From: Candidatus Cloacimonadota bacterium
Lineage (GTDB): Bacteria > Cloacimonadota > Cloacimonadia > JGIOTU-2
DNA: 64,000 bases
Reading direction: 5' to 3'
Assembly (NCBI GenBank): GCA_049903315.1
Contig: JBNGBT010000008.1
Span: 62,330-126,329, forward strand
The notes beneath the pieces were generated by a model that was not told where the DNA came from, searched no databases, and worked only from the letters and a program-made list of their open reading frames with translations. The position numbers were made by a program, and so were the translations under genes. Shown here one piece after another: positions 29,845 to 64,000 of the stretch (position 1 is its first letter; each line of letters opens with the position of its first letter).

Positions 29845-29855
29845 CGGAGTGTTCG

Positions 29856-31672: not shown

Positions 31673-31679
31673 CGGGCCT

Positions 31680-32010: not shown

Positions 32011-32102
32011 TTATGGATTTGATTGCTAAAACATTCAGTAAAAGGAATTGAGAATTAAGCAACTCATGCTCATCTACACTCTATAATTTTATAAAGAACG
32101 AT

Positions 32103-33050
32103 TTATTTTCTTTTTAGTAAATACACAAAAAATGGCGCACCGAAAAGTGCGGTCACAACACCGACCGGAATTTCAATTACCATCACTGAGCGCGCTATGG
32201 CATCGCATATCACGAGGAAGCTTGCACCAAGAAGCGCTGAGAGCGGAAGCATGTAGCGGTTGTCCGATCCAATAAGAAAACGGGCAATATGAGGGATGAT
32301 AAGTCCAACAAACCCGATAATTCCAACAAATGACACAATTATACCAACTAGAAATGAAGTAAGAATAAAGAGGAACTTTCGAGTTTTGTAAACATTCACC
32401 CCGAGTGTCTCTGCAGAATATTCCCCGGTTGAAAGGATGTTCAGCTTTGCCGAGAAAAGGCACAGGACAATCACGCCAATAATCGAAAAACCGGCAATCA
32501 TCCAGAGTAAAAATGACGTGGATTGAGAAAATATGAACCCGAGATTTCCCATAAGAATTGAGAATATTTGAGCAAGGTCTTTATGAAAGATGCTCATGAG
32601 AAAAGCAATGATCGCAGAGAAGAACATATTCACCACAACACCTGCAAGAATAAGCCTGGTTTTATCAATATGACGTTTTGTTTGAGCAATTTTCCATACA
32701 AGTATCATTGTAATAAGAGCGCCGAGAAATCCGAATAACGGCATCAAATATATCTTCTTGAGAAGAAGACCGATGATATTTCCAAGTGCGGCGCCGGAAG
32801 AGATGCCGAGCAAATAAGGTTCTGCAAGGGGATTATGAAGCATGCCCTGAAGTACACCGCCACTTGTTGCAAGCACAAGACCGGCAGCGATCCCAAGCAT
32901 GATGCGCGGTATTCGAATGTTAAATAAGATATTTTTGCTTGTTTCCGAAAGAGAAAAAAGATTAATGGAGCTTCCACCAATCTGAAGCGATACAAATATT
33001 GCGGCAAGTAATGCAATAAATCCGAGGAGAATGTATAATTTCTTATTCAT
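32103..33050 (-). CDS. ABC transporter permease, BtuC/FecCD family
   Basis: IRIPR, NPLAEPYLLGISSGAALG, GEYSAETLGV, GIIGFVGLIIPH, EIPVGVVTALFGAPFF. Confidence 0.92.
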   Translation of the reverse strand: MNKKLYILLGFIALLAAIFVSLQIGGSSINLFSLSETSKNILFNIRIPRIMLGIAAGLVLATSGGVLQGMLHNPLAEPYLLGISSGAALGNIIGLLLKKIYLMPLFGFLGALITMILVWKIAQTKRHIDKTRLILAGVVVNMFFSAIIAFLMSIFHKDLAQIFSILMGNLGFIFSQSTSFLLWMIAGFSIIGVIVLCLFSAKLNILSTGEYSAETLGVNVYKTRKFLFILTSFLVGIIVSFVGIIGFVGLIIPHIARFLIGSDNRYMLPLSALLGASFLVICDAIARSVMVIEIPVGVVTALFGAPFFVYLLKRK

Positions 33051-33875
33051 TTATTGAGAAGAAAGCTGCGATAATTTTTGTATTCCCTGAACGATTCGAG
33101 GACCAGCCCTTAAAATGAGATCGGGATCGATATCTTCTGTGGTGAAGATCATGTCGTTTTTGTTTGCGTTAATTTTATCCCACCCCAATCTGTCTTTGAT
33201 GTCCGCCTTATTCACATGTGGGTACGTAATAAGAATGATATCAGGATTGAGTTCCACAACTTTTTCTGCTGAGACAGAACAATATTCTCGAGGGAGTATA
33301 GGAAAGATGTTCTTAAGTCCTGCTTTGAGAATCATGTCTCCAACAAAGGAATCTGAAGATGCTGTCATGAGAGGATTGTTGTAGATTTCAACATAGATTG
33401 TCGGGGCTTCTTGAGGTTTTTGTATTATGTCGATTGCATTCTGCATTGAGACTATAAGTGAGTCAGCGCTATCTTCTTTTTCCAGATAGGTTCCTATCTC
33501 AGATATTGTATGATAGAGTCCGTTAATTGATCTCGGATAGAATTGGTGAACAGTAATATTGAGATCCCGCAATTTCTGTGAGAAAATTTCCTGCTCCATG
33601 CCTGTGAGAAAAACTGCATCCGGTTCGAGGGCAAGAATTTTTTCTATATTTGGAGCACTGAAACTGCCAATGATATCTTTCTGTTGAAGCGTGAGAGGAT
33701 AGTCGCACTCCAGTGTAATACCGATTATGTGATTTTCAGCTCCGATAGAGCAAACTATCTCTGCAAGCTCCGGCGAGAGCACCACTATCTGAGGATGGGG
33801 GGCGTCTACTTTTTCCATTGCAGAATTGCAGCCGATGATCAAGATCAGTAAAAACAGAAAGAAACATTTTTTCAT
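33051..33875 (-). CDS. Cobalamin-binding lipoprotein, BtuF-like
   Basis: Lipobox IIGC; IVVLSPELAEI, CDYP, PNIEKILALEPD, ILRAGPRI; first gene after the B12 riboswitch. Confidence 0.88.
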   Translation of the reverse strand: MKKCFFLFLLILIIGCNSAMEKVDAPHPQIVVLSPELAEIVCSIGAENHIIGITLECDYPLTLQQKDIIGSFSAPNIEKILALEPDAVFLTGMEQEIFSQKLRDLNITVHQFYPRSINGLYHTISEIGTYLEKEDSADSLIVSMQNAIDIIQKPQEAPTIYVEIYNNPLMTASSDSFVGDMILKAGLKNIFPILPREYCSVSAEKVVELNPDIILITYPHVNKADIKDRLGWDKINANKNDMIFTTEDIDPDLILRAGPRIVQGIQKLSQLSSQ

Positions 33876-49021: not shown

Positions 49022-49483
49022 ATGAAAAAGTTAATCGCACTCGCAAGTATGATGATACTCAGCGTAAGTATCGTGGTAGCAGCCACAGCAAGTGGTTATG
49101 TAACAGATATGGAAACCGGTGTTGGAATCGAAAGTGCAATCGTAAAATTCCATTTTATTGATGGTGAATGCCCTGACGGTGGCGGCAATGGCGGTGGCAA
49201 TGGTGGTGGAAACGGTAATAATGGCAATAACGGTGGCGGTAATGGCGGTCATGGTCTTAACATATATGATGCCGTAACCGATGCAGACGGATATTATACA
49301 ATCGTTGATCTTCCAGAAGGAAACTACGAAGCCCGCGCATTAAAACCTCATACCTATATGCCTTCTCTTCTTGAAGAGATAGTTATTGATGAAAATGGCG
49401 TAGTCGTCGACTTTGCTCTTGAACCATGCAGTGGTAGCGGTTCAGCAAAGCAACTCAAAATCAGACACCTCATCAACTTTTAG
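49022..49483 (+). CDS. Secreted carboxypeptidase-regulatory-like beta-sandwich protein with a Gly/Asn-rich insert
   Basis: Signal peptide; SGYVTDMETG..IESAIV and TDADGYYTIVDLPEGNY flank GGGNGGGNGGGNGNNGNNGGGNGGH; AAGGAG RBS. Confidence 0.7.
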   Translation: MKKLIALASMMILSVSIVVAATASGYVTDMETGVGIESAIVKFHFIDGECPDGGGNGGGNGGGNGNNGNNGGGNGGHGLNIYDAVTDADGYYTIVDLPEGNYEARALKPHTYMPSLLEEIVIDENGVVVDFALEPCSGSGSAKQLKIRHLINF

Positions 49484-49549
49484 TGCTGCGCACATGAGAA
49501 ATATTGACGGGATTTCGGTCCCGTCGTATTTTCTCTATAAGGAGTAATA

Positions 49550-49903
49550 ATGAAATCAATAATTTTTGCCGGTTTATTTGTATTTTTTTTAGCTGTGTCT
49601 TTGCATGCAGCAGATTCAACAGAAGCACCGGCATCTGGCGATGAGATCACCATCGAAGAGAAAAGTGAAGGAGCTGAGTTTGACTTCTTTATAGATAAAG
49701 ACGGTGATGGCATCTGTGATAATAGAACCCTGAGATATAAAGGAACATTTTCCAAGCATCTGAACATCCGTCATTACAGAATGATCTCTTATAAATATGA
49801 CTATCAGTTCAGATGCGAGTTCGGCTCATCAGGCGGATCAAAAAAAGGAGACGGTGGAAACGGACAACACGGAGGAAACCCGGGACATCATGGAGGTCAA
49901 TAG
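49550..49903 (+). CDS. Small secreted protein with a DxDGDGICD motif and Gly/His-rich tail
   Basis: Signal peptide LHA-A; FFIDKDGDGICDNR; tail GGNGQHGGNPGHHGGQ; AAGGAG RBS. Confidence 0.7.
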   Translation: MKSIIFAGLFVFFLAVSLHAADSTEAPASGDEITIEEKSEGAEFDFFIDKDGDGICDNRTLRYKGTFSKHLNIRHYRMISYKYDYQFRCEFGSSGGSKKGDGGNGQHGGNPGHHGGQ

Positions 49904-49906
49904 TTG

Positions 49907-50869
49907 ATGCCTGTCTGGCTCGGTCTGATTCTTATCGTATTTCCATCACTCCTCTTTGGACAAAACTCCGAAGGGGATATGTATTTTCATGGCTCATCAC
50001 AAAAAGGCATTGATGGATTATCTGAAAATAAGGGAATACTGGGCGGAAGCTTCAAGTATTTTTCTGATTCCTATTATCTTGATATAGCTCCGCAGTTAGC
50101 TGTACACTTTGACGGTTCCGATATTGAAGGAAATATTTCTTCGCTTGGAGAAATTTTCTTTCCGTGGGGAGGAACAAGTGCCCATATCTATTATCAAAAT
50201 ACGGCAGATTCACTGAACGATCAATTCAAGGCAACTGGAGAATTATATCGCACGATAGAAAAACAGCGGTATATCGTTGAATATGGGGATATTTTTGATT
50301 TTACATATTATCCTGATTACAGGAATTTCACGCATATTGATAATGCCCTCTACCTTTTGTATAAAAGATTTTATAGAACATTTGCATTGCACACATATTT
50401 TGATTTCACCTATCGATACTTCAATGATATGTCTGATCACTCAATTGGGCTGACAAAAGCATCGGCAGAGGTATACTTCTCACGCGGAATAAAGAGAAAT
50501 ATCGGACTTAAGTACGGAATGTATGTCAGTAAAAATATTACTTCAACGGATTCACTCATCTATGTGAACTCGGAACTGTACGATTCTTTTGCATATGATG
50601 TATATAAAATTTATTTGGGGAGCACGATATATTTAAATGACCTACTTGTAAAACCTGATATCTCAGTACAACATAAGATATACAATAATTCTTCCGCAGA
50701 AAGCTCTTATTCCGAAACGGGAATGGGATTATCTTTTTATGCGGATTATCCAATCAGTAATAATATTTTATTATATTCGAACAGCAATATGTTTGTTTCG
50801 TTTGATTCGGCATTAAGTATATCTACATACGACACAAGTCTTGGAATACGATATCTATTTAAGAAATAA
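49907..50869 (+). CDS. Putative outer-membrane beta-barrel protein
   Basis: Signal peptide; Tyr/Phe-rich alternating strands; C-terminal SLGIRYLF. Confidence 0.5.
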   Translation: MPVWLGLILIVFPSLLFGQNSEGDMYFHGSSQKGIDGLSENKGILGGSFKYFSDSYYLDIAPQLAVHFDGSDIEGNISSLGEIFFPWGGTSAHIYYQNTADSLNDQFKATGELYRTIEKQRYIVEYGDIFDFTYYPDYRNFTHIDNALYLLYKRFYRTFALHTYFDFTYRYFNDMSDHSIGLTKASAEVYFSRGIKRNIGLKYGMYVSKNITSTDSLIYVNSELYDSFAYDVYKIYLGSTIYLNDLLVKPDISVQHKIYNNSSAESSYSETGMGLSFYADYPISNNILLYSNSNMFVSFDSALSISTYDTSLGIRYLFKK

Positions 50870-50870
50870 T

Positions 50871-52526
50871 ATGAATATAAGCCCGGTAGAAAAAAAAGAA
50901 AAGAGCATCAAATACCTGCTCGTCATCATATCAATCATTATTGTGTTATTGTGGGCTTCTCTCTATTACGTACAGAACAATAATATTAAAACGGTTTATA
51001 AAACGATAGAATTGAACGGGCGGCTGTATCTCGAACTTGTAAATGATATCATTCAAAGCAATCTCTATTCTCAGGATGTGATAGAAACACTTTTCTTTGA
51101 ACGCGCAGAAATGCTCATCCATCTTGTTATGGAGGACCACACAGCACAGATTAGTGATTCACTCAGGCAGAAGATGCTCATACATCATATCTGCGTCATT
51201 GATACGCTTGGGAATCTTGTATTTTCTTTGCCGGAGGGTTGCTCAAAAGACGTATCCATAGACCAGCTTCCAAAAACAGAAGAATTTGTTCTTTTAGAAA
51301 TTGAGGATAATCCTGATGCAGTGTATATTGTCTCTTTTCGAAATGAGCAATGGTTTGTTGCATCAATAAAAAAGAGAGATTATTTCTCGCTTCTTAAGCC
51401 GATTCAGCTTTCTACAATTTTTTCTCAACTGAGCCAACAAATATCATCTGTGAGTGAATCAATAGAAACACTACCGCAGATTCGATATCTCGTCATTCAG
51501 GATGCAAAGGGTATAATTGCAGCTACTGAGAATGTGCGTCGAATGCAGAGAATATCTTCAGACGAATTTTTAAGCTCTCATCTGGCAAATGAAACCATTG
51601 CTTCTCGCGAGACTTCATTTGAAAATATAAAAGTGCTCGAGATCTTACGCCCATTCTCTCTCGAAGAAACCGAGCCCGTTCTTCTCCGTCTTGGGCTTTC
51701 AATAGATAAAATAGAATCTTTGAAGAGAAATCGCGTTCTCTTGTTTATTATTTATTCGATAATCTTTGCGGGAGTTTTAATTCTGGAATTCCTCTTTTAT
51801 CGTAATCATATTAAGATACACAGGATCATGGAATCCCTTCAAAAAGCCGAGTATATGGCAGGTATCGGAGAACTTGGCAGAGAGGTTGCTCACGAAATCA
51901 AAAACCCGCTCAATGCGATTTCAATGATACTTCAGAGAATCCGGGCAGAGTTTGTTCCCGAAAAAGACAGCGAGTTGAAAAAATGGCTTTCCGTATCGTT
52001 TGATGAAATAGAACGCCTCAACGGCATTGTAGAAAGATTCCTTGATTATTCGCGCTCGATCACATTGAAAATTAAGAAAGTTAATGTCGGTGATTTTATT
52101 GGGAAAATTGCTGATATTTTTCAACAGGAATATAAGGATACTAATCTGCAAATCCAGGTGGATGGCAATAAAAGCATTGTCTGGAATTTTGATATTGATG
52201 CACTCACTCAGGTTATGATAAATGTTATAAAGAATTCTGTCGAATCATTTTCACCCGAACAAGAACACAGGAACATCCGCATAGAATATTTTGAGAAAGA
52301 CAAAGAAATGACAATCAAGATCGTTGATAACGGCAGCGGGATTTCCGTAGATAAACTCAATAAAGTATGGGATCTATATTTCAGCACAAAAGAGAGCGGA
52401 AACGGATTGGGATTGCCTATTTCCAAGAAAATAATAAAAGCCCATCAGGGGGATGTATTTATCAAGAGCAGTTCAAAAAATGGAACTGAGATAATAATAA
52501 AGCTGCCAAAATCGGAGTTAGAGTGA
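50871..52526 (+). CDS. Membrane sensor histidine kinase (ZraS/AtoS/NtrB-like)
   Basis: Two TM helices around a periplasmic domain; VAHEIKNPL (H box), NVIKNS, DNGSGI, FSTKESGNGLGL. Confidence 0.92.
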   Translation: MNISPVEKKEKSIKYLLVIISIIIVLLWASLYYVQNNNIKTVYKTIELNGRLYLELVNDIIQSNLYSQDVIETLFFERAEMLIHLVMEDHTAQISDSLRQKMLIHHICVIDTLGNLVFSLPEGCSKDVSIDQLPKTEEFVLLEIEDNPDAVYIVSFRNEQWFVASIKKRDYFSLLKPIQLSTIFSQLSQQISSVSESIETLPQIRYLVIQDAKGIIAATENVRRMQRISSDEFLSSHLANETIASRETSFENIKVLEILRPFSLEETEPVLLRLGLSIDKIESLKRNRVLLFIIYSIIFAGVLILEFLFYRNHIKIHRIMESLQKAEYMAGIGELGREVAHEIKNPLNAISMILQRIRAEFVPEKDSELKKWLSVSFDEIERLNGIVERFLDYSRSITLKIKKVNVGDFIGKIADIFQQEYKDTNLQIQVDGNKSIVWNFDIDALTQVMINVIKNSVESFSPEQEHRNIRIEYFEKDKEMTIKIVDNGSGISVDKLNKVWDLYFSTKESGNGLGLPISKKIIKAHQGDVFIKSSSKNGTEIIIKLPKSELE

Positions 52527-53857
52527 AAATATTAATTATTGAAGACGACGCATCTCAAAGAGAGATATTAGCAGATTTTCTCAAGTCCCAAAAACACGAG
52601 ATCTTCACCGCTTCAAATGGTGAAGAAGGAATAAAAATATTTTATAAACACCCAGTTGATGTGGTGATATCTGATTATCGAATGCCGGGACTGAGTGGAA
52701 AAGAGGTTCTGGAAAAGATATTAAAGATAAATCCATTCACGGCAGTCATTATCATCACTGCATACAGCTCGGTAGATAATGCTGTCGAGTTGCTCAAACT
52801 TGGCGCGTTTGATTATATTGAAAAACCGATCAATCTCGAATTGCTCTTGAGTAAAATAAAAAATGCACAGAATTACATACAGGTTGAGAAGGAAAGTAAA
52901 AAGGTTCAAGATATTATTATCGACGAAGAACTTCCAGTCACTTTTATTGGAGACAGCCCAAAGATAAATGAAATCCTCAGCATTGTAAAAAGAGTCGCAC
53001 ATGTGGACGCTTCAGTCCTCATCTCCGGAGAAAGCGGAACCGGGAAAGAGGTCATAGCAGATATAATTCACCACCTCAGCCCCAGGAAAAAATATAAAAT
53101 GATAAAAGTAAACTGCTCAGCAATACCCGAAACACTTCTCGAGAGTGAGCTTTTCGGGCACGTGAAAGGGGCTTTTACAGGTTCGATACGCGACAGAAAA
53201 GGGCGTTTTGAAGAAGCGAATGGAGGTACACTTTTTCTCGATGAGATCGGGGATATTGCTCCGTCAATACAGGTAAAACTTCTCCGGACGCTTCAAACAA
53301 TGGAGTTTGAACCCGTGGGGAGCTCGATGACCAAAAAAGTGAATGTGCGCATTATTGCTGCATCAAATAAGAACATTCAAACAGAAGTGCAGTTAGGACA
53401 TTTTCGGGAAGATCTGTATTACAGGCTGAATGTCATACCAATTCATCTTCCCCCATTGCGTGAAAGAAAACAGGATATAAAAAAGCTGGTGGAACATTTT
53501 TTGAGCATATATTCCGCTGATGAAGACATAACTTTTTCCCACGATGCCCTTATGAAGCTGGTGAATTATCCCTGGGAAGGGAATATCAGGCAGCTGAAAA
53601 ATGTGATACAGAGAACGATCGCCCTAGCCAGAAATAACATAATCCAGATCGAAGAGCTTCCTGAGGAGATACGAGAATATCATCTTTTCAACAATGAAGA
53701 AAACGCAAAAACAATTGCCGATGTTGAACGAACTCACATCACGAAAATATTAAAAGAATGCGAATTCAACCAGGTGAAGGCAGCGGAGATGCTTGGGATT
53801 CATCGTAATACGTTATCAAGAAAAATCAAAGAATATAATATTGATATTCCAAAATAA
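52523..53857 (+). CDS. Sigma-54-dependent response regulator (NtrC/ZraR family)
   Basis: Receiver IEDD...DYRMP; GESGTGKE, ESELFGHVKGAFTGS, FLDEIG, FREDLYYRLNV, WEGNIRQL; Fis-type HTH. Confidence 0.95.
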   Translation: MKILIIEDDASQREILADFLKSQKHEIFTASNGEEGIKIFYKHPVDVVISDYRMPGLSGKEVLEKILKINPFTAVIIITAYSSVDNAVELLKLGAFDYIEKPINLELLLSKIKNAQNYIQVEKESKKVQDIIIDEELPVTFIGDSPKINEILSIVKRVAHVDASVLISGESGTGKEVIADIIHHLSPRKKYKMIKVNCSAIPETLLESELFGHVKGAFTGSIRDRKGRFEEANGGTLFLDEIGDIAPSIQVKLLRTLQTMEFEPVGSSMTKKVNVRIIAASNKNIQTEVQLGHFREDLYYRLNVIPIHLPPLRERKQDIKKLVEHFLSIYSADEDITFSHDALMKLVNYPWEGNIRQLKNVIQRTIALARNNIIQIEELPEEIREYHLFNNEENAKTIADVERTHITKILKECEFNQVKAAEMLGIHRNTLSRKIKEYNIDIPK

Positions 53858-53865
53858 ATATTGTC

Positions 53866-54651
53866 ATGGATAAGTTAAGAGTAAGAAGAATACTACAACT
53901 GGTTTCGCTTGGAATATCAGTGTCTTTATTTGTTCTACTAATCGAAGGTACACTTCCTGTTGCGCATGAGTTCTGCCCCTATGCATCGGTGTGTTTCGGT
54001 GTATGGAAAATTGGAGCAAAATTCGCACCGTTTATTTTTCCAGTAGCAATAGTAATTGGTGCTGCGATTGCACTCAGCACACTATTTCTCGGAAGATGGT
54101 TTTGTGGATATATTTGTCCCATTGGAACGATTCAGGAGCTTGTATTCTCAACAAGGAAATCCAAGAAAAAATTTGTGCAATTAATCCCTTACAAAGTCCA
54201 TAAACATTTGAATATTGTTAAATATGTTGTATTTTTTTTCACCGCAATAACTGCGTTTCTCGCAGCTCAATTTATCTACATGAAATTCTGCCCAATTCTT
54301 GCAATCGCTCATATTCAAAATATTACTATTGTTGGAATTCTTGTGCTTGCGATAATTCTATTTGCAGGTTTTTTTATCGAAAGATTCTGGTGCAGATACC
54401 TATGTCCTTATGCAGCGCTTATGAATATCATCCAGAAAATTGCCGATATGATAGGCATTAAAAGATATAAAATATTCCGGAACATTCACACCAGTATTAA
54501 CTGTTTTAATTGCCTGAATTACTGCCCGATGAACATTGACATCGGGTATAATGAAAAAATTTCTGACATTAATTGTATTAAGTGTTTGAGTTGCGTGCGC
54601 CGATGCTCAAAAACTGATAAAGAAAAAAGTAAATGTATTTATAGAGATTGA
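53866..54651 (+). CDS. NapH/MauN-like membrane 4Fe-4S protein
   Basis: About four TM helices; GRWFCGYICPIG and RFWCRYLCPY CxxxCP motifs; C-terminal SINCFNCLNYCP and CIKCLSCVRRC. Confidence 0.85.
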   Translation: MDKLRVRRILQLVSLGISVSLFVLLIEGTLPVAHEFCPYASVCFGVWKIGAKFAPFIFPVAIVIGAAIALSTLFLGRWFCGYICPIGTIQELVFSTRKSKKKFVQLIPYKVHKHLNIVKYVVFFFTAITAFLAAQFIYMKFCPILAIAHIQNITIVGILVLAIILFAGFFIERFWCRYLCPYAALMNIIQKIADMIGIKRYKIFRNIHTSINCFNCLNYCPMNIDIGYNEKISDINCIKCLSCVRRCSKTDKEKSKCIYRD

Positions 54652-54660
54652 GGAAAAAAA

Positions 54661-55167
54661 ATGAAAAAAATATATTTGATGATACTTATTGTTTTGCTTG
54701 CTGTTCCCCAGATAGTATTTGCGCAGGACACGACCAAAGTGTATAAGGTTGATAAATCAAAATGTATCGGCTGTACTATTTGCGTAAAAGATGGAAAATG
54801 TCCAACCGATGCAATAGAGATGAAGAATGGAAAAGCAGTTATTGATCCGACTAAATGCATAGACTGCGGTATATGCGCAATGCAGTGTCCTGTTGCAGCG
54901 ATTCAAGAAGTTGAGTATGTAGATAGCAGCGCAATAGTTGTGGAAGAAATTGTAGTTGAAGCTGAAGATACAAGTGCGATTGAGCAGTCGTCATATACTG
55001 TTGATGCAGAGGGCTGTATTGGCTGTGCGATCTGCGTTCGGAAATGTCCTGTTGGAGCGATCAGCATGAAGGACAGCAAAGCAGTAATAGATACGGAGAA
55101 ATGCATAAATTGTGGAATTTGTGCAAATGCATGCCCCGTGAAGGCAATACACAAAGCGGATGAGTAG
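54661..55167 (+). CDS. Exported polyferredoxin (two 2x[4Fe-4S] domains)
   Basis: Sec-type signal MKKIYLMILIVLLAVPQIVFA-Q; four Cys motifs CIGCTIC..CP, CIDCGICAMQCP, CIGCAICVRKCP, CINCGICANACP; acidic linker. Confidence 0.85.
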   Translation: MKKIYLMILIVLLAVPQIVFAQDTTKVYKVDKSKCIGCTICVKDGKCPTDAIEMKNGKAVIDPTKCIDCGICAMQCPVAAIQEVEYVDSSAIVVEEIVVEAEDTSAIEQSSYTVDAEGCIGCAICVRKCPVGAISMKDSKAVIDTEKCINCGICANACPVKAIHKADE

Positions 55168-58100
55168 AAGAAAAAAATACACACTCTACTTTCTTGCTGC
55201 TGTTTCTTTGTTATTCATTCTTTTACACTGCTCGGATAAGACCAAAAAGCTTTTTATCTATGATGGTGATGTCCGGATTGAATATTCACGGTGTACAGGA
55301 TGCTATGAATGCATTGATGAGTTCGAATGTCCGCAGAATGCGATAATAAAGGACAACAAGCATATCACCGCATATATTGATCCTGATAAGTGTATTCAAT
55401 GTATGAAGTGCATAGATGTCTTTTCCTGTAAAGATAATGCACTCACAGTTCAAAAAGATATAATATCTCCAGGTGCAATTAAAGACTTTTATACATGCTC
55501 GGATTCTGCCGGACGGCTTGAGATACAGTTCACTGCCCCAGGGGATGATTCAACTGATGGCAGGGCATATAATTATTCACTACACCTCACGTCTAACAAA
55601 AATACTATTACTTATGATTTTGATGTACCAGTCCCCTCAGAAGCGAACACAATGGAATATTGGCGGATTGAAGGTCTTCCTCTTAATGAAATGATAACAG
55701 TAAAACTTGATGCGAGCGATGAAGTTGGGAATATGTCCGGCATAATACAGGCAACTCTTACCATCGCTAATATTGATACAATCCCACCTGCCCAGATAAC
55801 CGATCTGTTTTCTGTGCCGCAACTTTCAACAATAGAGTTGCAATGGACATCTCCGGGTGATGATGGCCATGAGGGCATGGCGGATTCATATGAACTGCGA
55901 AAAGCAGAAGTTTCTATTACCGAGGATAATTGGGATGACGCTGAGGTTTTAGAGTATGCCCCAATCCCCGAAGAACCATACACACTTCAATCCTATGTAG
56001 TAGAAGATAGTCTTGTTCAGGACAGAATATATTATTTTGCGATTAAAACTACTGATGATTCAGGGAATATATCAGAGATTTCAAACTGTGCGTATAATGA
56101 AATAATCGGCGATACGATCCCGCCAGCCAATATCACTGATATCAAGGTTACTTCAACCGGTTTTCAAACAGCTCACATCCGATGGACTGCTCCCGGCGAT
56201 GACAATGCAGAGGGTGCTTCTTCATATTATATAATCAAGATTTCAGAAGATGAGATAACGGATGACAACTGGAATTCAATTGAACCGTACGACAATACCA
56301 TCATTCCCCAATCAGCAGGCGGAACAGAGAACTTTCTCTTCGACAACCTTGCAGGAGATACAGAATATTATATCGGAATTAAGGCAGTTGATGAGGTTGA
56401 AAACGTTTCAGGACTTTCAAATGTTGCGCAAGCTGTGACTCAAGAAGTTCCAGACAACACACCCCCGAATCCTATCGCGGATCTCACCACGGTAGAAACA
56501 GAGACAGAAATTACACTGTCATGGACTGCTCCTGGAGATGATGGGACCACGGGAATAGCTTCATTCTACGTTTTGAAATATAGTGAGAATCTAATCACGG
56601 CAGGTAACTGGTCTTCAACCCAAACACTTCCCAATGCTCCTATTCCAGAAGAATCCGGCACAGCACAGAATTATATAGTGAGTAACGTCGAACCGGGCAT
56701 AGAATACTATTTTGCTATCCGTTCATATGATGATGCATTGAATATTTCGAATCTGTCAAATGTAGTAGCAGGTTCTCTTTTGCAAGATATAATTCCACCT
56801 TCTGATATATCAGATCTGGACGCACAATCAACAGAAACCGAGATCATCTTACAGTGGACTGCTCCCGGCGATGATGGGAATATCGGAACTGCGGACTCCT
56901 ATGATTTACGATATTCAACAGAGTTCATTTCTCAGGGAAATTGGCAGAATGCTACAGCGATCAGCGATGTGGCCGATCCATTTATATCTGGTACACTCCA
57001 ATCATACATTTTTGATTATGGTTCCATTGGAACAGACTATTTCTTTTCAATAAAAGCTAAAGATGATAATGGCAACGAAGCGGGATTATCCAATATTGCC
57101 TCAGGACAAATTCTTGGAGATATTACCCCGCCTTCAGCCGTACTGGATCTGGCATCATTTGCAACAGAGGAAATGATAACTCTCATGTGGACTGCACCCG
57201 GCGATGATGGAGATAACGGCACAGCTGAATTTTATGATGTCAGATATAACACGGAGCATATTGATGATACAAATTGGAATGATTCCTATCAGTGCGATAA
57301 TGAGCCAGTACCAATGCCTGCGGGTGCAGAACAGCAATATGAAATCAGCGGATTGCTTCAGGGTGAAGTGTACTATTTTGGGATGAAAAGTGCAGATGAG
57401 AATAATAATTATTCACTCATTTCAAATATTATTTCTGCTTCTTTATTATCCGATACAACACCACCCGTAGCGATTGCAGATCTTATAGTTCATAATTTCT
57501 CTTCACATTCGATCCAGATACGTTGGACTGCAGTTGGTGATGATGAATTTGAGGGAACTGCAGATTCTTACGTGATTAAGGTCTATGACGGGGAAATAAA
57601 TGAAAGCAATTGGGCAAGCATTCCGGAATATACCCAGAATTTAACTCCGCAACAATCCGGAATGCAAGAAATGCTGCTTCTCTCACAACTGCAGCCGGAA
57701 ACCGAGTATTATGTCGGACTGAAAGTACTCGACGATGCACAGAATATTTCCGGCTTATCAAACATTGTGAATGCAACCACAACTGCAACCCCAGACACAG
57801 TATCGCCGGCTCAAGTAATTGATTTGTCTGCACTTGCAACAGAGATCGATATTACACTCTCATGGACAGCGCCGGGGGATGATGGGAATGAAGGGCTAGC
57901 TGCATTTTATGAAATAAGAGAAAATAGCGTTATGATTACTCCTGATAATTGGGAGTCTTCTGAGCTATTGACAAATATTCCTTTGCCTGCGGAATCCGGA
58001 ACAGTACAATCTTATATCTTAGATGATGCAGAGCCCGGAATACAGTATTTCTTTGCTCTTAAAACCTATGATGACGCATCCAATGTTTCTGTGATTTCAA

Positions 58101-60322
58101 ATAGTGCTTCAGCATTACTTTTACAGGACACAACACCTCCTTCGCAAATCGCAGACCTGTCTGCGGAAGCAACAGAGATTGATATTACACTTTCATGGAC
58201 AGCACCAGGTGATGATGGAAATGTGGGATTGGCATCATATTATGAGATCAGAAAAAATAATGCAGAGATAACTTCTGCTAATTGGAATTCCTACGAACTG
58301 TTACCAGACATTCCTATTCCTGAAGACCCCGGCACATTTCAGTCATACACTTTTTCGGAACCCGTGCCAGACGAGGTATATTATTTTGGCATTAAGACTT
58401 TCGATGATATGGAAAATGTCTCAGATCTTTCAAATATTGTGTCAGGAACTCTGCTGCAGGATACGGAACCTCCTTCAGATATAACCGACCTGCTTGCAGA
58501 ATCATACGAAACAGAGATAATCCTTCAGTGGACTGCTTCCGGTGATGATGGTGATCTTGGATTGGCTTCCTATTATCAGATCAGGAGAAATAGTGTGGAG
58601 ATAACTCTTACCAATTGGAATTCATCCCCACTTTTGCCCGATATTCCACAACCTGCTGACCCGGGCACGATCCAGTCCTGTGCTTTTACGGAAGCAGAGC
58701 CCGGAACGGTGTATTATTTTGCCATAAAAACTTTCGATGATATGGGAAATGTATCCGGTCTTTCAAATATTGTGTCGGCAACTCTACTGCAGGACACAGA
58801 GCCGCCGTCAGATATAACCGACCTGCATGCGGGATCCTACGAAACTGAGATCGTCCTGCAGTGGACAGCATCCGGTGATGATGGCATGGTTGGAACTGCG
58901 GAATCCTATGATATGAGATATAATTTTGAAGAAATAAATGAAAATAACTGGGATTATGCATTATCAATAAGCGATGTAGCGGCACCATCCCCTTCTGGCA
59001 CTACCGAATCATATATTTTTACTGGCGGACCAGTCGGACTTGAGCTTTTCTTCGCTATCAAAGCTTTAGATGAAAATGGCAATGAATCCGGGTTGTCCAA
59101 CGTAGCATCCGGTCAGATCCTTGGTGATATCACACCTCCTTCTGCCATCAATAATCTTACTATATCAAATGTTACTTTTGAGAGCTTAATGCTCTCATGG
59201 ACTTCAGTTGGCGATGACGGGCTTTCTGGTGTTGCATCGGGTTATACAATAAAAATTCATACCGAAGAAATTACTGAGCAGAACTGGAATTCGATTACGG
59301 AATATGCTCAAAATATGATCCCTCAGCCCTCGGGTTCAATGGAAATGATCCTGATAGAGAATCTCTTATCGGAAACTGAATATTTTGCAGCGATCAAAGC
59401 TTTTGACGAAAATCAAAACTACTCGGATATCTCGAATGTTCCCAGCACTGTAACTCCTGAAGAGCCGGATATTATACCTCCTGATGCAATTAACGATCTT
59501 GATAGCAATGCGAGTGAAACAACGATTACATTGAGCTGGACTGCACCGGGCGACGACGGAAATACCGGAACAGCTGCATATTATGAAATTCGCAGATCCG
59601 AAGAACTCATCACAGAAGTAAACTGGTCTGCTGCAACACCTCTGACGAATCCACCTTCTCCTCAGCCTGCAGGAACACAACAGTCATATGAGGTGAACGG
59701 TCTCACAGGTGGTGTAGTGTATTATTTTGCTATAAAAACATTTGATGATGTAATGAATGTATCGGAATTATCAAATGTTGTTTTTGATATGCTCGAAGAA
59801 GATACGACGCCTCCATCACAGATAACCGATCTTATGGTTTTGGCAGGATACGCTTCTAATAATTCAACAATATCAATCCATTGGACAGCACCGGGTGATG
59901 ACGGCGCATTGGGAACTGCTGATCATTATGAAATCCGTTATGCAACATTTCAGATCAGTGAACTCAACTGGAATCTAGCGCAGGTATTTTTCAATCCACC
60001 CGCTCCGCAAACTGCAGGAACAATTCAAACATGTAATGTTACAGGTTTAAATGATGCGACAATTTACTACTTTGCCATCAAAGCATATGACGATAATAAT
60101 AATGCGGGGATCGCATCCAATTCTCCAGGTGGAAAAATAGTGTATCAAATCAGTACCGGTCCCTGTAACGGATGTGGAAACTGCGTGAATCATTGTCCGG
60201 AAAATGCGATCACTGATCATGGATCATATGCAACCATTGATCCTGATAAATGTGAAGCATGTGGTGACTGTGTCGGTTGGTGTCCGAGAAATGCAATTCA
60301 TTTGTATGTGGTGAGTTATTAA
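55160..60322 (+). CDS. Giant putative lipoprotein: ferredoxin domain + 14 FN3-like repeats + ferredoxin domain
   Basis: Signal ending LLHC; N-terminal CTGCYEC..CP / CIQCMKC..C; 14 repeats D-x-x-PP..I.DL...WTAPGDD...Y...YYFAIK..D; C-terminal CNGCGNCVNHCP / CEACGDCVGWCP. Confidence 0.85.
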   Translation: MSRRKKYTLYFLAAVSLLFILLHCSDKTKKLFIYDGDVRIEYSRCTGCYECIDEFECPQNAIIKDNKHITAYIDPDKCIQCMKCIDVFSCKDNALTVQKDIISPGAIKDFYTCSDSAGRLEIQFTAPGDDSTDGRAYNYSLHLTSNKNTITYDFDVPVPSEANTMEYWRIEGLPLNEMITVKLDASDEVGNMSGIIQATLTIANIDTIPPAQITDLFSVPQLSTIELQWTSPGDDGHEGMADSYELRKAEVSITEDNWDDAEVLEYAPIPEEPYTLQSYVVEDSLVQDRIYYFAIKTTDDSGNISEISNCAYNEIIGDTIPPANITDIKVTSTGFQTAHIRWTAPGDDNAEGASSYYIIKISEDEITDDNWNSIEPYDNTIIPQSAGGTENFLFDNLAGDTEYYIGIKAVDEVENVSGLSNVAQAVTQEVPDNTPPNPIADLTTVETETEITLSWTAPGDDGTTGIASFYVLKYSENLITAGNWSSTQTLPNAPIPEESGTAQNYIVSNVEPGIEYYFAIRSYDDALNISNLSNVVAGSLLQDIIPPSDISDLDAQSTETEIILQWTAPGDDGNIGTADSYDLRYSTEFISQGNWQNATAISDVADPFISGTLQSYIFDYGSIGTDYFFSIKAKDDNGNEAGLSNIASGQILGDITPPSAVLDLASFATEEMITLMWTAPGDDGDNGTAEFYDVRYNTEHIDDTNWNDSYQCDNEPVPMPAGAEQQYEISGLLQGEVYYFGMKSADENNNYSLISNIISASLLSDTTPPVAIADLIVHNFSSHSIQIRWTAVGDDEFEGTADSYVIKVYDGEINESNWASIPEYTQNLTPQQSGMQEMLLLSQLQPETEYYVGLKVLDDAQNISGLSNIVNATTTATPDTVSPAQVIDLSALATEIDITLSWTAPGDDGNEGLAAFYEIRENSVMITPDNWESSELLTNIPLPAESGTVQSYILDDAEPGIQYFFALKTYDDASNVSVISNSASALLLQDTTPPSQIADLSAEATEIDITLSWTAPGDDGNVGLASYYEIRKNNAEITSANWNSYELLPDIPIPEDPGTFQSYTFSEPVPDEVYYFGIKTFDDMENVSDLSNIVSGTLLQDTEPPSDITDLLAESYETEIILQWTASGDDGDLGLASYYQIRRNSVEITLTNWNSSPLLPDIPQPADPGTIQSCAFTEAEPGTVYYFAIKTFDDMGNVSGLSNIVSATLLQDTEPPSDITDLHAGSYETEIVLQWTASGDDGMVGTAESYDMRYNFEEINENNWDYALSISDVAAPSPSGTTESYIFTGGPVGLELFFAIKALDENGNESGLSNVASGQILGDITPPSAINNLTISNVTFESLMLSWTSVGDDGLSGVASGYTIKIHTEEITEQNWNSITEYAQNMIPQPSGSMEMILIENLLSETEYFAAIKAFDENQNYSDISNVPSTVTPEEPDIIPPDAINDLDSNASETTITLSWTAPGDDGNTGTAAYYEIRRSEELITEVNWSAATPLTNPPSPQPAGTQQSYEVNGLTGGVVYYFAIKTFDDVMNVSELSNVVFDMLEEDTTPPSQITDLMVLAGYASNNSTISIHWTAPGDDGALGTADHYEIRYATFQISELNWNLAQVFFNPPAPQTAGTIQTCNVTGLNDATIYYFAIKAYDDNNNAGIASNSPGGKIVYQISTGPCNGCGNCVNHCPENAITDHGSYATIDPDKCEACGDCVGWCPRNAIHLYVVSY
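55450..60135 (+). repeat. Tandem array of 14 FN3-like coding repeats (about 330-345 nt each)
   Basis: W/F-T-A/S-P/V/S-GDD motif counted 14 times; the junctions near 58430 and 58760 remain highly similar at DNA level. Confidence 0.85.
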
Positions 60323-60568
60323 ATGAAAAAAAAGAGAACATCGTACATAGTCATTATTGCAGTTTTGATAATTATGCTTGTGCTCATCGCTGCGACCGAA
60401 TCAAAACCTATTGTATGGAAAGAGAACTGCACCGGGTGTGGAGATTGTGCAAAATATTGCCCCGTGAATGCGATAACGATAATAAACGGGAAGGCAGTCA
60501 TCGATCACGAAAAGTGTATAGATTGCAAGTTGTGTGTCACCACCTGCACCTTTGGAGCCCTTAAGTAG
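60323..60568 (+). CDS. Small 2x[4Fe-4S] ferredoxin with an N-terminal signal or anchor helix
   Basis: MKKKRTSYIVIIAVLIIMLVLIAA; CTGCGDCAKYCP, CIDCKLCVTTC. Confidence 0.82.
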   Translation: MKKKRTSYIVIIAVLIIMLVLIAATESKPIVWKENCTGCGDCAKYCPVNAITIINGKAVIDHEKCIDCKLCVTTCTFGALK

Positions 60569-60569
60569 G

Positions 60570-60815
60570 ATGAAAAAATTCACTCGAATTTTACTATTCA
60601 TCTTTTGTGTGCTGATACTTTTTTGGGGATGCACAAAATTTGCAGGCATAAAATTCACTATTGATGAATCGAGCTGCATAGGATGCGGAAGGTGCTATGA
60701 CGCATGCCCTCATAATGCTATATTTTATAGCGAAGGAAAGGCAGTTATTATTCAGAGCAAATGCAAGCAGTGCGGATTGTGCGTGCCTGTCTGCCCGAAT
60801 GATGCGATCCATTAA
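60570..60815 (+). CDS. Small lipoprotein 2x[4Fe-4S] ferredoxin
   Basis: MKKFTRILLFIFCVLILFWG-C lipobox-like; CIGCGRCYDACP, CKQCGLCVPVCP; ATG at 60570 preferred. Confidence 0.82.
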   Translation: MKKFTRILLFIFCVLILFWGCTKFAGIKFTIDESSCIGCGRCYDACPHNAIFYSEGKAVIIQSKCKQCGLCVPVCPNDAIH

Positions 60816-60820
60816 GTATT

Positions 60821-61984
60821 ATGAAGAAATATTTCTTTTTTATCATATTATTACTCAACGCCAATATACTTTTGGGTGAGGGGCAGCTTTCTTATGAAGC
60901 TTCCTATGATGAAAATGAAGGTATCAGCCACAGGTTCGCATCGTATGTGACATCTCTTACGCAGAAGTGGCTCATCGAGAACATAACATACAGCTCCCTG
61001 CACAGTGAAGATGATAAAAAGAAGAATAAAGATGATGCACAATATTATCTTTTAAACTATATCAGAAATAAGGTTATAGCCACTCATTTTTCAGATTCTT
61101 ACCTTATTTCAGCATATCTTTCTGGGGAATATGATTTTGGAAGAAATATCAAAACTAATATTGCTGGTTTGCCGTATCAGTACACACTTGAAAACGGACT
61201 GACAACTGGATTGAGAGCAAATTACAAATTCTCAAACTTCGAAACAGATATGCGTCTGGACTATGACACGAAAAATTACAATTATGTAACACTCGACAGT
61301 AAAGAAGGACATCATACCGAAGCAAATCTACAAGGAAAGATCAAAACATCATTGTCATTATCAAAATCACTGAAAGCATACATCGAAGCTTATCATTACA
61401 ATGATTTGAATGAAAGCAGCAAGTTCGATTTTACCCGGTTCTATGCAGGATTATCTTTTGATAAGAAACTCAATTATATCCATTACCTCAGTATCGATGC
61501 CGCAGGTGGATATTCTGATATTGATTCTCTATTTCCCTATACATTTCGAACTGAAGCACGGGTGACAAGCAAGTTCATTCATGAGTGGATCGCAGTTGCA
61601 AAATTAAGCTACAATATCTGGACAAATAATGATATAGATGGAATATATTTTGGCAATACTTACGCAGAATTTCTTACTCAAAAGAATATTTCATTCACGC
61701 CAAATAATGAAGTGAGTAAATTCCAGATGTCTGCATCGCACTATTATCTGAGCAATCAAACTCTCTTGAAGACCAAGCTGGAATTCTATATAAATAAACT
61801 TATGTTATCATTATCGTACGGACGATACATCGGCAGGAATTTGCCATATGATAATAAGTTCATCGGCAAGATCGCATATCCGATTTTTCAAAATGTTTGC
61901 CTGTCCTATAGCTATCACTATCAGGACAATGTGGTAATTCCGGGAGTAAATGCTCATTCCTGCGGGATTGATGTGCTTTTTTAA
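60821..61984 (+). CDS. Putative outer-membrane beta-barrel protein
   Basis: Signal peptide; many aromatic-terminated amphipathic strands; ends CGIDVLF with a terminal Phe. Confidence 0.55.
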   Translation: MKKYFFFIILLLNANILLGEGQLSYEASYDENEGISHRFASYVTSLTQKWLIENITYSSLHSEDDKKKNKDDAQYYLLNYIRNKVIATHFSDSYLISAYLSGEYDFGRNIKTNIAGLPYQYTLENGLTTGLRANYKFSNFETDMRLDYDTKNYNYVTLDSKEGHHTEANLQGKIKTSLSLSKSLKAYIEAYHYNDLNESSKFDFTRFYAGLSFDKKLNYIHYLSIDAAGGYSDIDSLFPYTFRTEARVTSKFIHEWIAVAKLSYNIWTNNDIDGIYFGNTYAEFLTQKNISFTPNNEVSKFQMSASHYYLSNQTLLKTKLEFYINKLMLSLSYGRYIGRNLPYDNKFIGKIAYPIFQNVCLSYSYHYQDNVVIPGVNAHSCGIDVLF

Positions 61985-61987
61985 ATC

Positions 61988-62986
61988 ATGCTGAAAACGC
62001 TTGCAGAAGGATTCATGCTTGGATTGGCCACAGGTTCTGTGTGTCTTGTGACATGCACTCCGATCTATCTTCCTTATCTCTTATCTGAAGAACGTAAGCT
62101 AGCAAAAAGCTTGGGCATAGTCGCAGAAATTTCTGCTGGCAGGTTTTTTTCATATATCGCTTTTGGAGCAATTGCCGGATATGTCGGTGCAAATATTTCT
62201 AATATCAACAGAACACTTTTCACATCTATCGCATATATTTTACTCTCAATTTATCTTGTACTTTCTGCAGTGAGGGCAAGGCAACATGATAAAAAATGCC
62301 ATGTTTCAAAAATTGCAAGAATAACCAAAAGCGCATTTATTCTCGGCATTCTTACGGGCATAAATTTCTGTCCTGCATTTCTGATCGCACTTTCCAAGGC
62401 AGTAAATCTTGGGGGAGTAGTAAGTGGAATGATGCTTTTCCTCGGATTTTTTGGAGGTACCACCCTCTATCTTATTCCGATAGCATTTCTCGGGCAGCTT
62501 TCACGGATTCAGATAATGAAAAAGATAGGGCAAATCGCTTCACTGATCATTGCAGCATGGTTTATCTTCAGTGGAATTAGAGGGTTAGCCACTCTCAAAA
62601 AGCAGCGCAGTCACGTAGAGGTTCAGCTTGAAGAAAATGAAAGATTGGTAGATGTCTTTGCGCCTGATCAACAGATTTTGATCATATCCTCGGATGAAAA
62701 TGCCACATATTTTTCCGCATTGAGAGATTCCTTTACTGCCTGGAATATGCACGAGATTATTTATTTGCAGAATAATTCAGAATATGTGGACTCGCTCATG
62801 AAATATGAAAAGGGCATTGTCTTTTGTGACAATGAAATTGAATGCGAAAATCTTCGGTCCATCCTTCATAATTTTGATGTGTTTTATATTGAGAAAAACT
62901 ATCCGATAAGCCGGATACTCACATTCCTCAATAAGTTTACCTTCAAAACAGAGACAACTCTCCAGTGGGAGTTCAAAGAGCAGTAA
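61988..62986 (+). CDS. DsbD_2/TauE-like membrane protein with an extra C-terminal soluble domain
   Basis: GFMLGLATGSVCLVTCTP, GRFFSYIAFGAIAG, GILTGINFCPAF, FFGGTT; about six TM helices plus about 125-aa tail. Confidence 0.72.
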   Translation: MLKTLAEGFMLGLATGSVCLVTCTPIYLPYLLSEERKLAKSLGIVAEISAGRFFSYIAFGAIAGYVGANISNINRTLFTSIAYILLSIYLVLSAVRARQHDKKCHVSKIARITKSAFILGILTGINFCPAFLIALSKAVNLGGVVSGMMLFLGFFGGTTLYLIPIAFLGQLSRIQIMKKIGQIASLIIAAWFIFSGIRGLATLKKQRSHVEVQLEENERLVDVFAPDQQILIISSDENATYFSALRDSFTAWNMHEIIYLQNNSEYVDSLMKYEKGIVFCDNEIECENLRSILHNFDVFYIEKNYPISRILTFLNKFTFKTETTLQWEFKEQ

Positions 62987-63793
62987 TTACAGATACTGCA
63001 TCATTTCTTTATCTTTCACCTGACCGTAAAGCTCGATATAGGGCTTTACCGGGCTTGAGATAATCTTCGGAAAAAGAACTTCTTCGATCTGGAAGAAACC
63101 AGCGGATTGTGACATTTCTATTAAAATTTTAATAGGTTTTTTATCTCCCCGGATTATGTTCACTTTCTGGATAGAGCTTGCAGAATACTTATGAATATCC
63201 CCTACTCGTGGCTGTTGAGAGAGTAGGGTGGTGATGCGGGAACGCCCCTTTTCCATATCGCACCCATCGCCGATAAGTACGAGTCCTGCTTCAAGGGAAT
63301 AAATTTTTTCTGTAGCCATGTGTCCGAAAATGCCTTCGATGATCATTGCTTTCAGAATAGTTTTTTTCGGGATATTGTCTTTATAGATCGCATCGAGCAT
63401 CCGCCGAATAATCGGTTCTGCAAAAATAATTCCGATGATCTCATGATGGTCGCGGGTTGCAGTCATGCCGACGTCATGAAGAAGAGATGCTGCCAGAACG
63501 CATACTTTACTGTCCTGATATGAGCCCATGTGTTCTGATTCAAGATTGAACTTTATGCCTGCATTATGCAGGAGGTCAAACATGATGAGAGCATTCAGAG
63601 CTGCAGTTCTCATATGAACCGGTCCATGGTCATTATATCCAAGGCGCTTAATAGAAACAGTATTTGCAAAATCCTGAAGAGTCAGCACCTCTACATCATT
63701 AAAAATAAAGTTTGCTATCTCAGTAGATTTCCCCTCAAGATGGGTCAAGATCGATTTCTCAAGCGCTATTTGCTTACGTGTTTTCTTAATCAT
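62987..63793 (-). CDS. HD-domain metal-dependent phosphohydrolase
   Basis: YNDHGPVH, LLHDVGM, GDGCDMEKGRSR. Confidence 0.85.
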   Translation of the reverse strand: MIKKTRKQIALEKSILTHLEGKSTEIANFIFNDVEVLTLQDFANTVSIKRLGYNDHGPVHMRTAALNALIMFDLLHNAGIKFNLESEHMGSYQDSKVCVLAASLLHDVGMTATRDHHEIIGIIFAEPIIRRMLDAIYKDNIPKKTILKAMIIEGIFGHMATEKIYSLEAGLVLIGDGCDMEKGRSRITTLLSQQPRVGDIHKYSASSIQKVNIIRGDKKPIKILIEMSQSAGFFQIEEVLFPKIISSPVKPYIELYGQVKDKEMMQYL

Positions 63794-63879
63794 AATAAGT
63801 TTTCATTTCCATTGTTATATTTCATAAATAGTGTAAAAGTATTACTATTCATGTCAATAATTATCTAAAGATCTCTATT

Positions 63880-63906
63880 AAAAAGGAATGCCCCATGGGG
63901 CATTCC
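63880..63906 (-). terminator. Intrinsic terminator (- strand)
   Basis: Perfect 22-bp palindrome GGAATGCCCCATGGGGCATTCC followed on the - strand by TTTTT; shortly after a - strand TGA at 63934-63936 that may end a gene entering from the window edge. Confidence 0.7.
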
Positions 63907-64000
63907 CATTTCTATAAATTATATGTAAGATTTTCACGCGTTGTTTACACTTTTAGGGAAGAAATATGCTATTAATTTCTCCATTGGTGTTAACTCGTCA

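Follow-up and report, generated by a model that had tools for sequence, protein, structure and literature searches.

We describe here an operon of an uncultured anaerobic Candidatus Cloacimonadota bacterium (genome 96.4% complete) that encodes a stalk lipoprotein of 1720 amino acids (aa) carrying a ferredoxin-type domain at each end, together with two small exported ferredoxins, an outer-membrane beta-barrel and an inner-membrane protein of the DsbD_2 family. The operon lies in the window, that is, the whole 64,000-nucleotide stretch of contig JBNGBT010000008.1 that was analysed. Its gene content, its export signals, its invariant cysteine (Cys) sets, the fold of the barrel and the occurrence of the distal ferredoxin in two delivery modes were observed; the putative function that we propose, giving it about an even chance, is that of a haem-free, iron-sulfur (Fe-S) conduit that takes electrons across the outer membrane and has its distal carrier on a tether.

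A ferredoxin-type domain at each end of a repeat stalk

The stalk gene is an uninterrupted frame with no N (55160-60322, plus strand), and its product is laid out as follows:

55160..60322 (+): stalk lipoprotein, 1720 aa, in the order lipobox, FdN, 14 fibronectin type III (FN3) repeats, FdC
55160..55231 (+): Sec/lipoprotein signal, ending LLHC24, with no twin-arginine consensus; Cys in 52/52 orthologues
55271..55453 (+): FdN, dicluster domain of ferredoxin type with 8 Cys and x5 loops, membrane-proximal (Fer4_10 at aa 38-87)
55457..60139 (+): stalk, built of 14 WTAPGDD-type FN3 repeats, acidic (Pfam fn3; repeat hidden Markov model; FN3 model of repeat 1)
60140..60319 (+): FdC, distal 8-Cys ferredoxin, all 8 Cys invariant in 44/44 aligned sequences

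An export signal ending in Cys, 14 acidic FN3-like repeats and a canonical C-terminal dicluster ferredoxin had been read from this DNA in a first-pass annotation, and all three are borne out. The signal is present, with its lipobox Cys in every orthologue; the motif [WF]T[AS][PSV]GDD occurs 14 times at a spacing of 105-115 aa, and the repeat model also counts 14; and FdC carries CxxCxxCxxxCP motifs at aa 1669-1679 and 1698-1708. Pfam assigns fn3 to the stalk protein (E 8.5e-65) and Fer4 families to each of its ends, and finds no Por_Secre_tail on it. The stalk holds 247 acidic (D+E) vs 42 basic (K+R) residues, for a net charge of -206, and its 14 repeats are 22-68% identical to one another; the model of repeat 1 superposes on the FN3 fold. 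The repeats also match TIGR00868 (CLCA) in 13 stretches, at 357 bits vs a cut-off of 900.85. This match concerns the C-terminal FN3 part of the profile, the best stretch covering only profile positions 723-863, and since that part alone is shared and the ends are ferredoxins, the stalk protein is not a CLCA protein.

The two motifs of FdN read C45xxC48xxC51-x5-C57P and C78xxC81xxC84-x5-C90. The first-pass annotation had singled out this CxxCxxC-x5-C spacing as unusual, and the spacing is indeed real: exactly eight Cys are found in FdN in 52/52 orthologues, with x5 in both motifs in 46 of them. Judged from the aligned sequences it is a conserved two-residue loop insertion, however, and not a new motif; the neighbouring ferredoxin Fd4 (gene at 54661) likewise has x5, and two IorA ferredoxin domains have x4. 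The best PDB sequence match of FdN is RnfB (9eri_B, E 3.3e-7). Its model has a predicted local distance difference test (pLDDT) score of 55-74, and among the matches listed in a fold search with FdN plus repeat 1 there were only FN3 domains. In FdC it is the second motif that varies, with Cys spacings of x1, x2 or x3 across orthologues.

Searching 232 Cloacimonadota genomes with the N-terminal 207 aa (E below 1e-29) retrieved stalk orthologues in 53, the host included. We analysed 52 orthologues, six of which run off a contig end, leaving 46 complete open reading frames (ORFs). Both ferredoxins are kept in 44 of the 46, and a comparison of repeat number, which the first-pass annotation had proposed, gave 4-14 repeats in these 44: 4 repeats in 16 ORFs, 5 in 8, 6 in 11, 7 in one, 8 in 7, and 14 in the host, whose copy is the longest. 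One of the remaining two is an apparently frameshift-split gene (3 repeats, the rest in the next ORF) and the other a 2-repeat form without the distal ferredoxin. Four of the 52 sequences were left out of the FdN alignment (first motif CxxxxCxxC; all four keep 8 Cys), and the FdC alignment leaves out the six contig-end ORFs and the two broken or short ones.

Two possibilities raised in the first-pass annotation, namely that the architecture is an assembly chimera or that homologues routinely lack the terminal Cys motifs, find no support in these data. Orthologues share the architecture, among them two from single-contig genomes (G118 and G120), and so do the colinear locus L001, which has 12 repeats, and the metagenome locus L087, the one close relative examined among the 33 loci of a metagenome scan, which is 86% identical over 58136-63894. 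The terminal Cys sets are complete in 52/52 FdN and 44/44 FdC domains. Positions 53800-63000 lie in one contig without differences in three of four sequencing runs, the fourth covering all bins piecewise; all four are possible sources of the assembly and hence not independent of it. Of the data sets listed as containing this DNA none is RNA, which speaks neither for nor against expression, and the 13 main ones are all possible sources too, so that they give no evidence on habitat.

Locus L001 has repeats 1-8 and 11-14, so the host copy has probably gained two repeats by duplication. Across orthologues the first and last repeats are of conserved types and the middle repeats vary, which is the pattern of a spacer and agrees with the role that the first-pass annotation had given to the FN3 array.

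The operon and its decay in the host genus

The stalk gene overlaps the stop of the gene before it with its own start, and abuts the gene after it with its 3' end. Its neighbours, all on the same strand, are:

53866..54651 (+): inner-membrane Fe-S protein, NapH-like (Fer4_5, PF12801); accessory, as it can occur apart from the barrel block
54661..55167 (+): Fd4, tandem ferredoxin with 4 motifs, exported; accessory, going together with the NapH-like gene
60323..60568 (+): FdA, small ferredoxin, core gene; its signal is of the cleavable type (Pfam; linkage)
60570..60815 (+): FdB, small lipoprotein ferredoxin, core gene; lipobox Cys in 81/82
60821..61984 (+): outer-membrane beta-barrel, 387 aa, core gene; about 20 long strands and no plug domain in the model
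61988..62986 (+): DsbD_2 (PF13386) inner-membrane protein; four invariant Cys, C-terminal domain without assignment

FdA, FdB and the barrel gene follow directly 3' of the stalk gene in 40 of the 41 loci with enough sequence, the exception having the barrel upstream. The same three genes are adjacent in the same order in 40/40 stalk-less loci, which were fetched from among 63 barrel matches in genomes without the stalk gene. Since they stay together with or without the stalk gene, these three form the core of the operon. All Cys are invariant in the aligned FdA and FdB. A DsbD_2 gene follows the barrel in 30/36 stalk loci and 20/40 stalk-less loci; its C19 and C128 are invariant and align, weakly, with the Cys pair of DsbD (hhalign probability 19.6, E 0.0012), and its profile gave no meaningful match against PDB sequences. 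A NapH-like gene occurs anywhere in the fetched region of 22/52 stalk loci. Neither the barrel nor the DsbD_2 protein nor the absence of twin-arginine translocation (Tat), to which we return below, had figured in the first-pass account.

The barrel was modelled at a pLDDT of 90.9, its strands being counted from the modelled secondary structure. It has no family in Pfam or NCBIfam, with a single weak YfaZ match among 40 members, and a fold search returned generic large barrels only. A profile built from divergent barrels matches 92/232 Cloacimonadota genomes. In a wider search with a barrel profile, which yielded 118 representatives, the organism-named members of the 20 barrel clusters that were looked up were all from Cloacimonadota; look-alikes listed by the Atlas in Eiseniibacteriota and Poribacteria (0.95) are of low recognition and not confirmed. 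Word-based protein searches were insensitive (8, 1 and 9 matches). Complex prediction of the barrel with FdA, FdB and the N-terminal 180 aa of the stalk protein scored 0.84, 0.71 and 0.80 in its runs, falling to 0.24 and 0.00 in controls that replaced the barrel; a control with the stalk fragment replaced scored 0.85, so that the chain responsible for the score is ambiguous and we count the prediction neither for nor against binding.

In the host genus this block is being lost. Three different deletions, in L081, L086 and L180, take out the stalk gene together with FdA, FdB and the larger part of the barrel gene, each at a junction of its own, and leave DsbD_2; one further genome retains only a DsbD_2 remnant, and three have lost the whole block (L176-L180 are among these loci). 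At L001 (L001:10001-14497) the stalk gene has a stop at codon 43. All seven deletion-bearing congeners keep NapH-like and Fd4 sequences. The decay of the block as a unit ties the stalk protein to the barrel and makes the NapH-like and Fd4 genes separable from it. The host itself keeps the longest stalk known while the operon decays in its genus.

Several features around the operon were also recorded. Leading straight into it is a module (49022-53857, plus strand) encoding an exported protein rich in Gly and Asn, a small protein with DxDGDG, a protein of 321 aa without a family, a histidine kinase and a sigma-54 regulator. We rejected the kinase/sigma-54 module as a core part, as it is found at only 2/52 loci (the host and L042, from another family). 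A promoter scan stood at chance level (59 vs 52 +/- 7). In many lineages (e.g. L052:655-1197) the gene in the Fd4 slot encodes a single ferredoxin, and a domain of ~90 aa without a Pfam match stands before it in place of a second one. On the right (62987-64000) the end of the window is the end of the contig (C70), and the neighbour on this side, the same throughout the genus, is an HD-domain gene that converges on the operon. Elsewhere in the flanks, Fur and FeoB follow one locus (L138:12210-14931), a heavy-metal (HMA) P-type ATPase stands upstream of five loci of one family (L122-L125 and L157), and further downstream genes include a full DsbD after one locus and a thioredoxin-like gene after two (L126, L037/L038). 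Within the window, a NifS-like/NifU pair sits inside a cluster on the opposite strand (26462-33875) that encodes a TonB-dependent receptor, an ABC ATPase, a FecCD permease and a periplasmic binding protein. The ATP synthase c subunit (6686-7417, plus strand) is 243 aa long with three ATP-synt_C stretches, i.e. triplicated, and the nucleotide-binding match of the 567-aa alpha subunit (8783-10486) is split in two, suggesting an insertion. Elsewhere in the host genome (G000:C33:7733-9322), as in five of six congeners, the IorA match ends before the C-terminal ferredoxin part and has a stop codon; IorA is full-length in families f2 and f3.

Probable display of the distal ferredoxin and the proposed conduit

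In lineages without the stalk gene, the slot before FdA is often occupied by a protein of ~180 aa that consists of a signal, a ferredoxin and a type IX secretion system (T9SS) sorting tail. Por_Secre_tail was above its cut-off in four of five tailed ferredoxins tested, the fifth matching FlgD_ig. The slot may also hold a short lipoprotein in which a ferredoxin is combined with at most two FN3 domains (4 loci), or the two forms together. The tailed ferredoxins appear orthologous to FdC: in a tree of 97 ferredoxin domains, limited to 59 columns and to 15 of the 52 stalk loci, ten of them form a clade with 15 FdC (support 98/89), and the FdC profile scores them at a mean of 65.7 bits vs 29-52 for the profiles of other groups. 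The T9SS-tailed form was found in 17/232 genomes and in none of the 53 with a stalk gene, a distribution based on 14 candidates scored per genome and on relatives that are not independent of one another; both forms occur within families f1 and f15. The host genome has SprA and PorV, and Cloacimonadota are listed among the phyla that may have T9SS in the relevant part of PMC11285876.

Because the FdC orthologue of stalk-less genomes carries a T9SS tail, FdC is probably displayed outside the cell, and the stalk would then be an alternative way of keeping it on the surface. The first-pass suggestion that the stalk presents a redox domain far from the membrane thus gains support from comparative sequence data. 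The N-termini of the stalk proteins point in the same direction: a lipobox is present in 52/52, Asp at position +3 in 50/52, and at least two acidic residues at +2 to +6 in 37/52, vs 5/82 for FdB. An acidic export signal of surface lipoproteins is described in the part of PMC5080379 used here, where it is defined in Bacteroidetes, a phylum other than that of the host.

How would such a stalk work? The linkers between repeats are near zero, and Asp/Asn residues are invariant in three places, the DTxPP at the N-terminus and the loops GDD and DDxxN. On FN3 topology and the modelled strand positions these residues all lie at the same pole of a domain, suggestive of Ca2+ sites where domains meet; together with the short linkers they argue for a stiff rod. 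An FN3 domain is ~3.5-4 nm long, and an extended stalk of 4-14 repeats would therefore measure about 14-56 nm. The orthologue repeat alignment contains no conserved Cys, His or Met in the stalk repeats, and on this ground we rejected conduction along the stalk. Direct tunnelling between FdN and FdC in an extended rod is excluded, as the first-pass annotation had argued from the distance between the two ends. Its further idea, that the small ferredoxins decorate the stalk, fares less well: FdA and FdB persist beside the barrel in all 40 stalk-less loci and FdB is lipid-anchored by its own lipobox, which makes decoration unlikely. As FdC is a separate secreted protein in other lineages, it need not be hard-wired. 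We favour a tethered mobile carrier that returns to its base by flexing or relays through neighbouring stalks; a swinging shuttle fits the free distal ferredoxin of those lineages, whereas the short linkers and junction Asp/Asn point to a stiff rod.

Cytochrome c assembly (Cytochrom_C_asm) was not found in the host genome, and 5/232 genomes of the phylum have it; no ORF of at least 120 aa in the host has two or more CxxCH motifs, i.e. there is no multihaem protein. A Tat consensus is absent from all of the 52 stalk proteins, 84 FdA and 82 FdB examined. Without Tat the ferredoxins would cross the inner membrane unfolded, and their clusters would form outside the cytoplasm. Fe-S assembly is represented in the host by one NifU with its NifS-like neighbour (29856-31672, plus strand). 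Outside the operon, this Tat-less genome also encodes a protein of 368 aa whose N-terminus resembles a signal and which has two Fer4 motifs (G000:C3:8781-9887, minus strand).

In the conduit that we propose, all ferredoxins would leave unfolded through Sec, DsbD_2 would keep their Cys reduced, by analogy with cytochrome c maturation, and the clusters would be formed outside the cytoplasm. FdA and FdB, whose genes are never separated from that of the barrel, would occupy or cap its plug-less pore. The stalk protein would be anchored at the outer face with FdN beside the barrel, and its redox-free FN3 repeats would serve as a tether of lineage-tuned length that positions FdC level with the surface layer or outside it, where it may meet minerals, soluble carriers or partner cells. 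Electron exchange of FdC with the FdN/barrel end would rely on a flexing tether or on neighbouring stalks touching, and not on conduction along the stalk. The direction is most likely outward, for the disposal of fermentation electrons, which is a guess from the metabolism of the host.

A number of observations weigh against this proposal. Fe-S binding, surface location and electron transfer are all putative. The presumed point of electron entry at the inner membrane, the NapH-like protein, is encoded just upstream on the same strand in only 14/39 stalk loci and 1/40 stalk-less loci, and in the host genus it survives loss of the barrel block. The host genome yielded neither MqnA/D nor MenD, making the source of quinol doubtful; its one UbiA-family protein is closest to geranylgeranylglyceryl-phosphate prenyltransferases. 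TatC was not found in the host genome either (9/232 genomes of the phylum have it, two of them stalk-bearing), which raises the question of how Fe-S clusters would be loaded, and a Pfam scan of the operon neighbourhood revealed no Fe-S assembly protein. The FdN and FdC ends lie far beyond tunnelling distance of each other and the stalk has no conserved redox residue. Many core loci have no outer ferredoxin gene alongside. The stalk N-terminus of the host, with a net charge of +1 at +2 to +6, is an exception to the acidic export signal. Finally, most of the congeners examined have a broken stalk gene or none, meaning that the system is dispensable.

The exported proteins might instead capture and import iron, FeS or another soft metal: apo-ferredoxins would scavenge Fe2+ together with sulfide, or FeS clusters in solution, some distance away, FdA and FdB would hand them through the barrel, and DsbD_2 would carry the metal or sulfur over the inner membrane. 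This would explain why apo-proteins leave through Sec with neither Tat nor an assembly gene, and DsbD_2, with its four invariant Cys, is linked to the barrel more tightly than the NapH-like gene is; the Fur and FeoB genes after one locus and the HMA P-type ATPase before five loci of one family also fit. However, the flanks are otherwise unconserved, with iron-uptake genes at only one scanned locus (36 neighbours checked), the barrel lacks a TonB plug, the host has a TonB/FecCD cluster of its own, and every domain keeps the full 8-Cys dicluster set, as redox ferredoxins do. We regard metal capture as rather unlikely, though it is the main rival of the conduit. The same complete Cys sets tell against reading the ends as binding modules that Zn or disulfides stabilise, without working Fe-S, on a stalk that resembles an adhesin and is stiffened by Ca2+, with DsbD_2 serving the thiol chemistry. 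FN3 arrays are typical of adhesins, and Sec export, the DsbD-type neighbour, the drifting Cys spacing (x5 in FdN; x1, x2 or x3 in the second motif of FdC) and the modest model of FdN would all suit such modules. Yet all eight ligand Cys are kept in every domain, ferredoxin-family scores are above cut-off, and five ferredoxin-type genes are clustered with a NapH-like gene, so that this explanation seems to us quite improbable.

Alternatively, the system may face the periplasm, the stalk spanning or lining it as a redox buffer or sensor between the membranes and the barrel being a substrate pore or secretion channel. The periplasm is 15-25 nm wide, close to the length of stalks with the commonest repeat numbers (4-6 repeats, 35/46 complete ORFs); the host copy lacks the acidic export signal, and barrels of surface lipoprotein assembly are among the Atlas feature look-alikes of the barrel (0.94, low recognition). 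Stalks of 8-14 repeats would be too long for this space if extended, however, and the T9SS-tailed FdC orthologue and the acidic lipoprotein N-termini of most orthologues point outward; we hold this arrangement to be improbable. An assembly artefact or a decayed, non-functional gene could be suspected from the loss of the operon in the host genus, with its stop codon at L001 and deletions in seven congeners, but the intact frame, the architecture common to 44 complete orthologues including those of single-contig genomes, and the invariant Cys leave such an explanation with hardly any weight.

Relation to known electron-transfer systems

The proposed conduit resembles the porin-cytochrome clusters in layout. 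These combine an outer-membrane barrel, a periplasmic redox protein and an outer redox lipoprotein, according to the passages of PMC5566968 that deal with them, and include MtrCAB/MtoAB/PioAB as well as OmaB-OmbB-OmcB of Geobacter; the corresponding parts here are a plug-less barrel, the exported FdA and FdB and the outer stalk lipoprotein. The carriers differ, being 8-Cys ferredoxins in place of haem c, and the outer carrier here is borne by a stalk that does not conduct or by a T9SS tail. About 20 strands make up the barrel, vs 24-32 for the MtoB/PioB type in the same passages. No family matches it, and its resemblance to MtrB (6r2q_B, Z 14.9, root-mean-square deviation 8.3) does not exceed that to other barrels. 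Being haem-free, the operon is not a member of this group, and the family and fold searches with the barrel gave no clear sign of homology to MtrB, PioB or OmbB.

Other systems share single features with it. Shewanella DmsEFAB likewise holds an Fe-S subunit (DmsB) outside, on an outer-membrane protein, and uses a cytochrome and a molybdoenzyme (as far as described in the portion of PMC11302344 considered). The extracytosolic electron-transfer systems of Meheust et al. 2021, in the sections of PMC8238504 that define them, contain PF12801 NapH-like proteins, DsbD (PF02683), flavinylated FMN-binding carriers and ApbE. A PF12801 protein and a DsbD-type protein beside exported carriers are thus common to both, whereas here the carriers are ferredoxins, the DsbD-type protein is of PF13386, and a barrel and a stalk are added; no FMN-binding or ApbE family was found by Pfam and NCBIfam among the proteins of the operon, to which this comparison was confined. 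The Fe-S subunit of DmsEFAB is exported folded through Tat, a pathway absent in our host. With cytoplasmic 2[4Fe-4S] ferredoxins and the domains of RnfB and IorA, our ferredoxins share two CxxCxxC...C motifs, and they differ in carrying Sec, lipoprotein or T9SS signals. None of the Atlas clusters listed combines FN3 with Fer4 (best score 0.83, a lead only). We found no description of the stalk protein or the operon in the full-text literature searched, which consisted mostly of non-subscription papers, without their supplements; the genes might appear in tables of PMC8238504 or PMC8542988. The main text of the Cloacimonadota genome paper PMC8542988, as covered by this search, has neither "fibronectin" nor "cytochrome", and its ferredoxin passages concern cytoplasmic metabolism; the searched portions of PMC10734462 and PMC11434368 hold nothing on this system.

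The trans-outer-membrane conduits that we know of or have read about depend on haem proteins or on folded, Tat-exported enzymes. Under either of the two leading explanations, electron conduit or metal capture, Fe-S proteins would be loaded outside the cytoplasm, a step of which we found no description. The series of 4-14 repeats, together with the T9SS-tailed alternative, makes the role of the stalk as a tether directly testable. More broadly, it is possible, although we think it rather less probable than not, that Cloacimonadota run extracellular electron transfer wholly on exported, externally loaded [4Fe-4S] ferredoxins, with a ferredoxin wire in the barrel and the stalk as an arm of tens of nm that carries a terminal ferredoxin to minerals or partner cells. 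If the proposed conduit is real, systems of this kind would have been missed by current marker-gene screens, and fermenters without cytochromes could exchange electrons with minerals or syntrophic partners.

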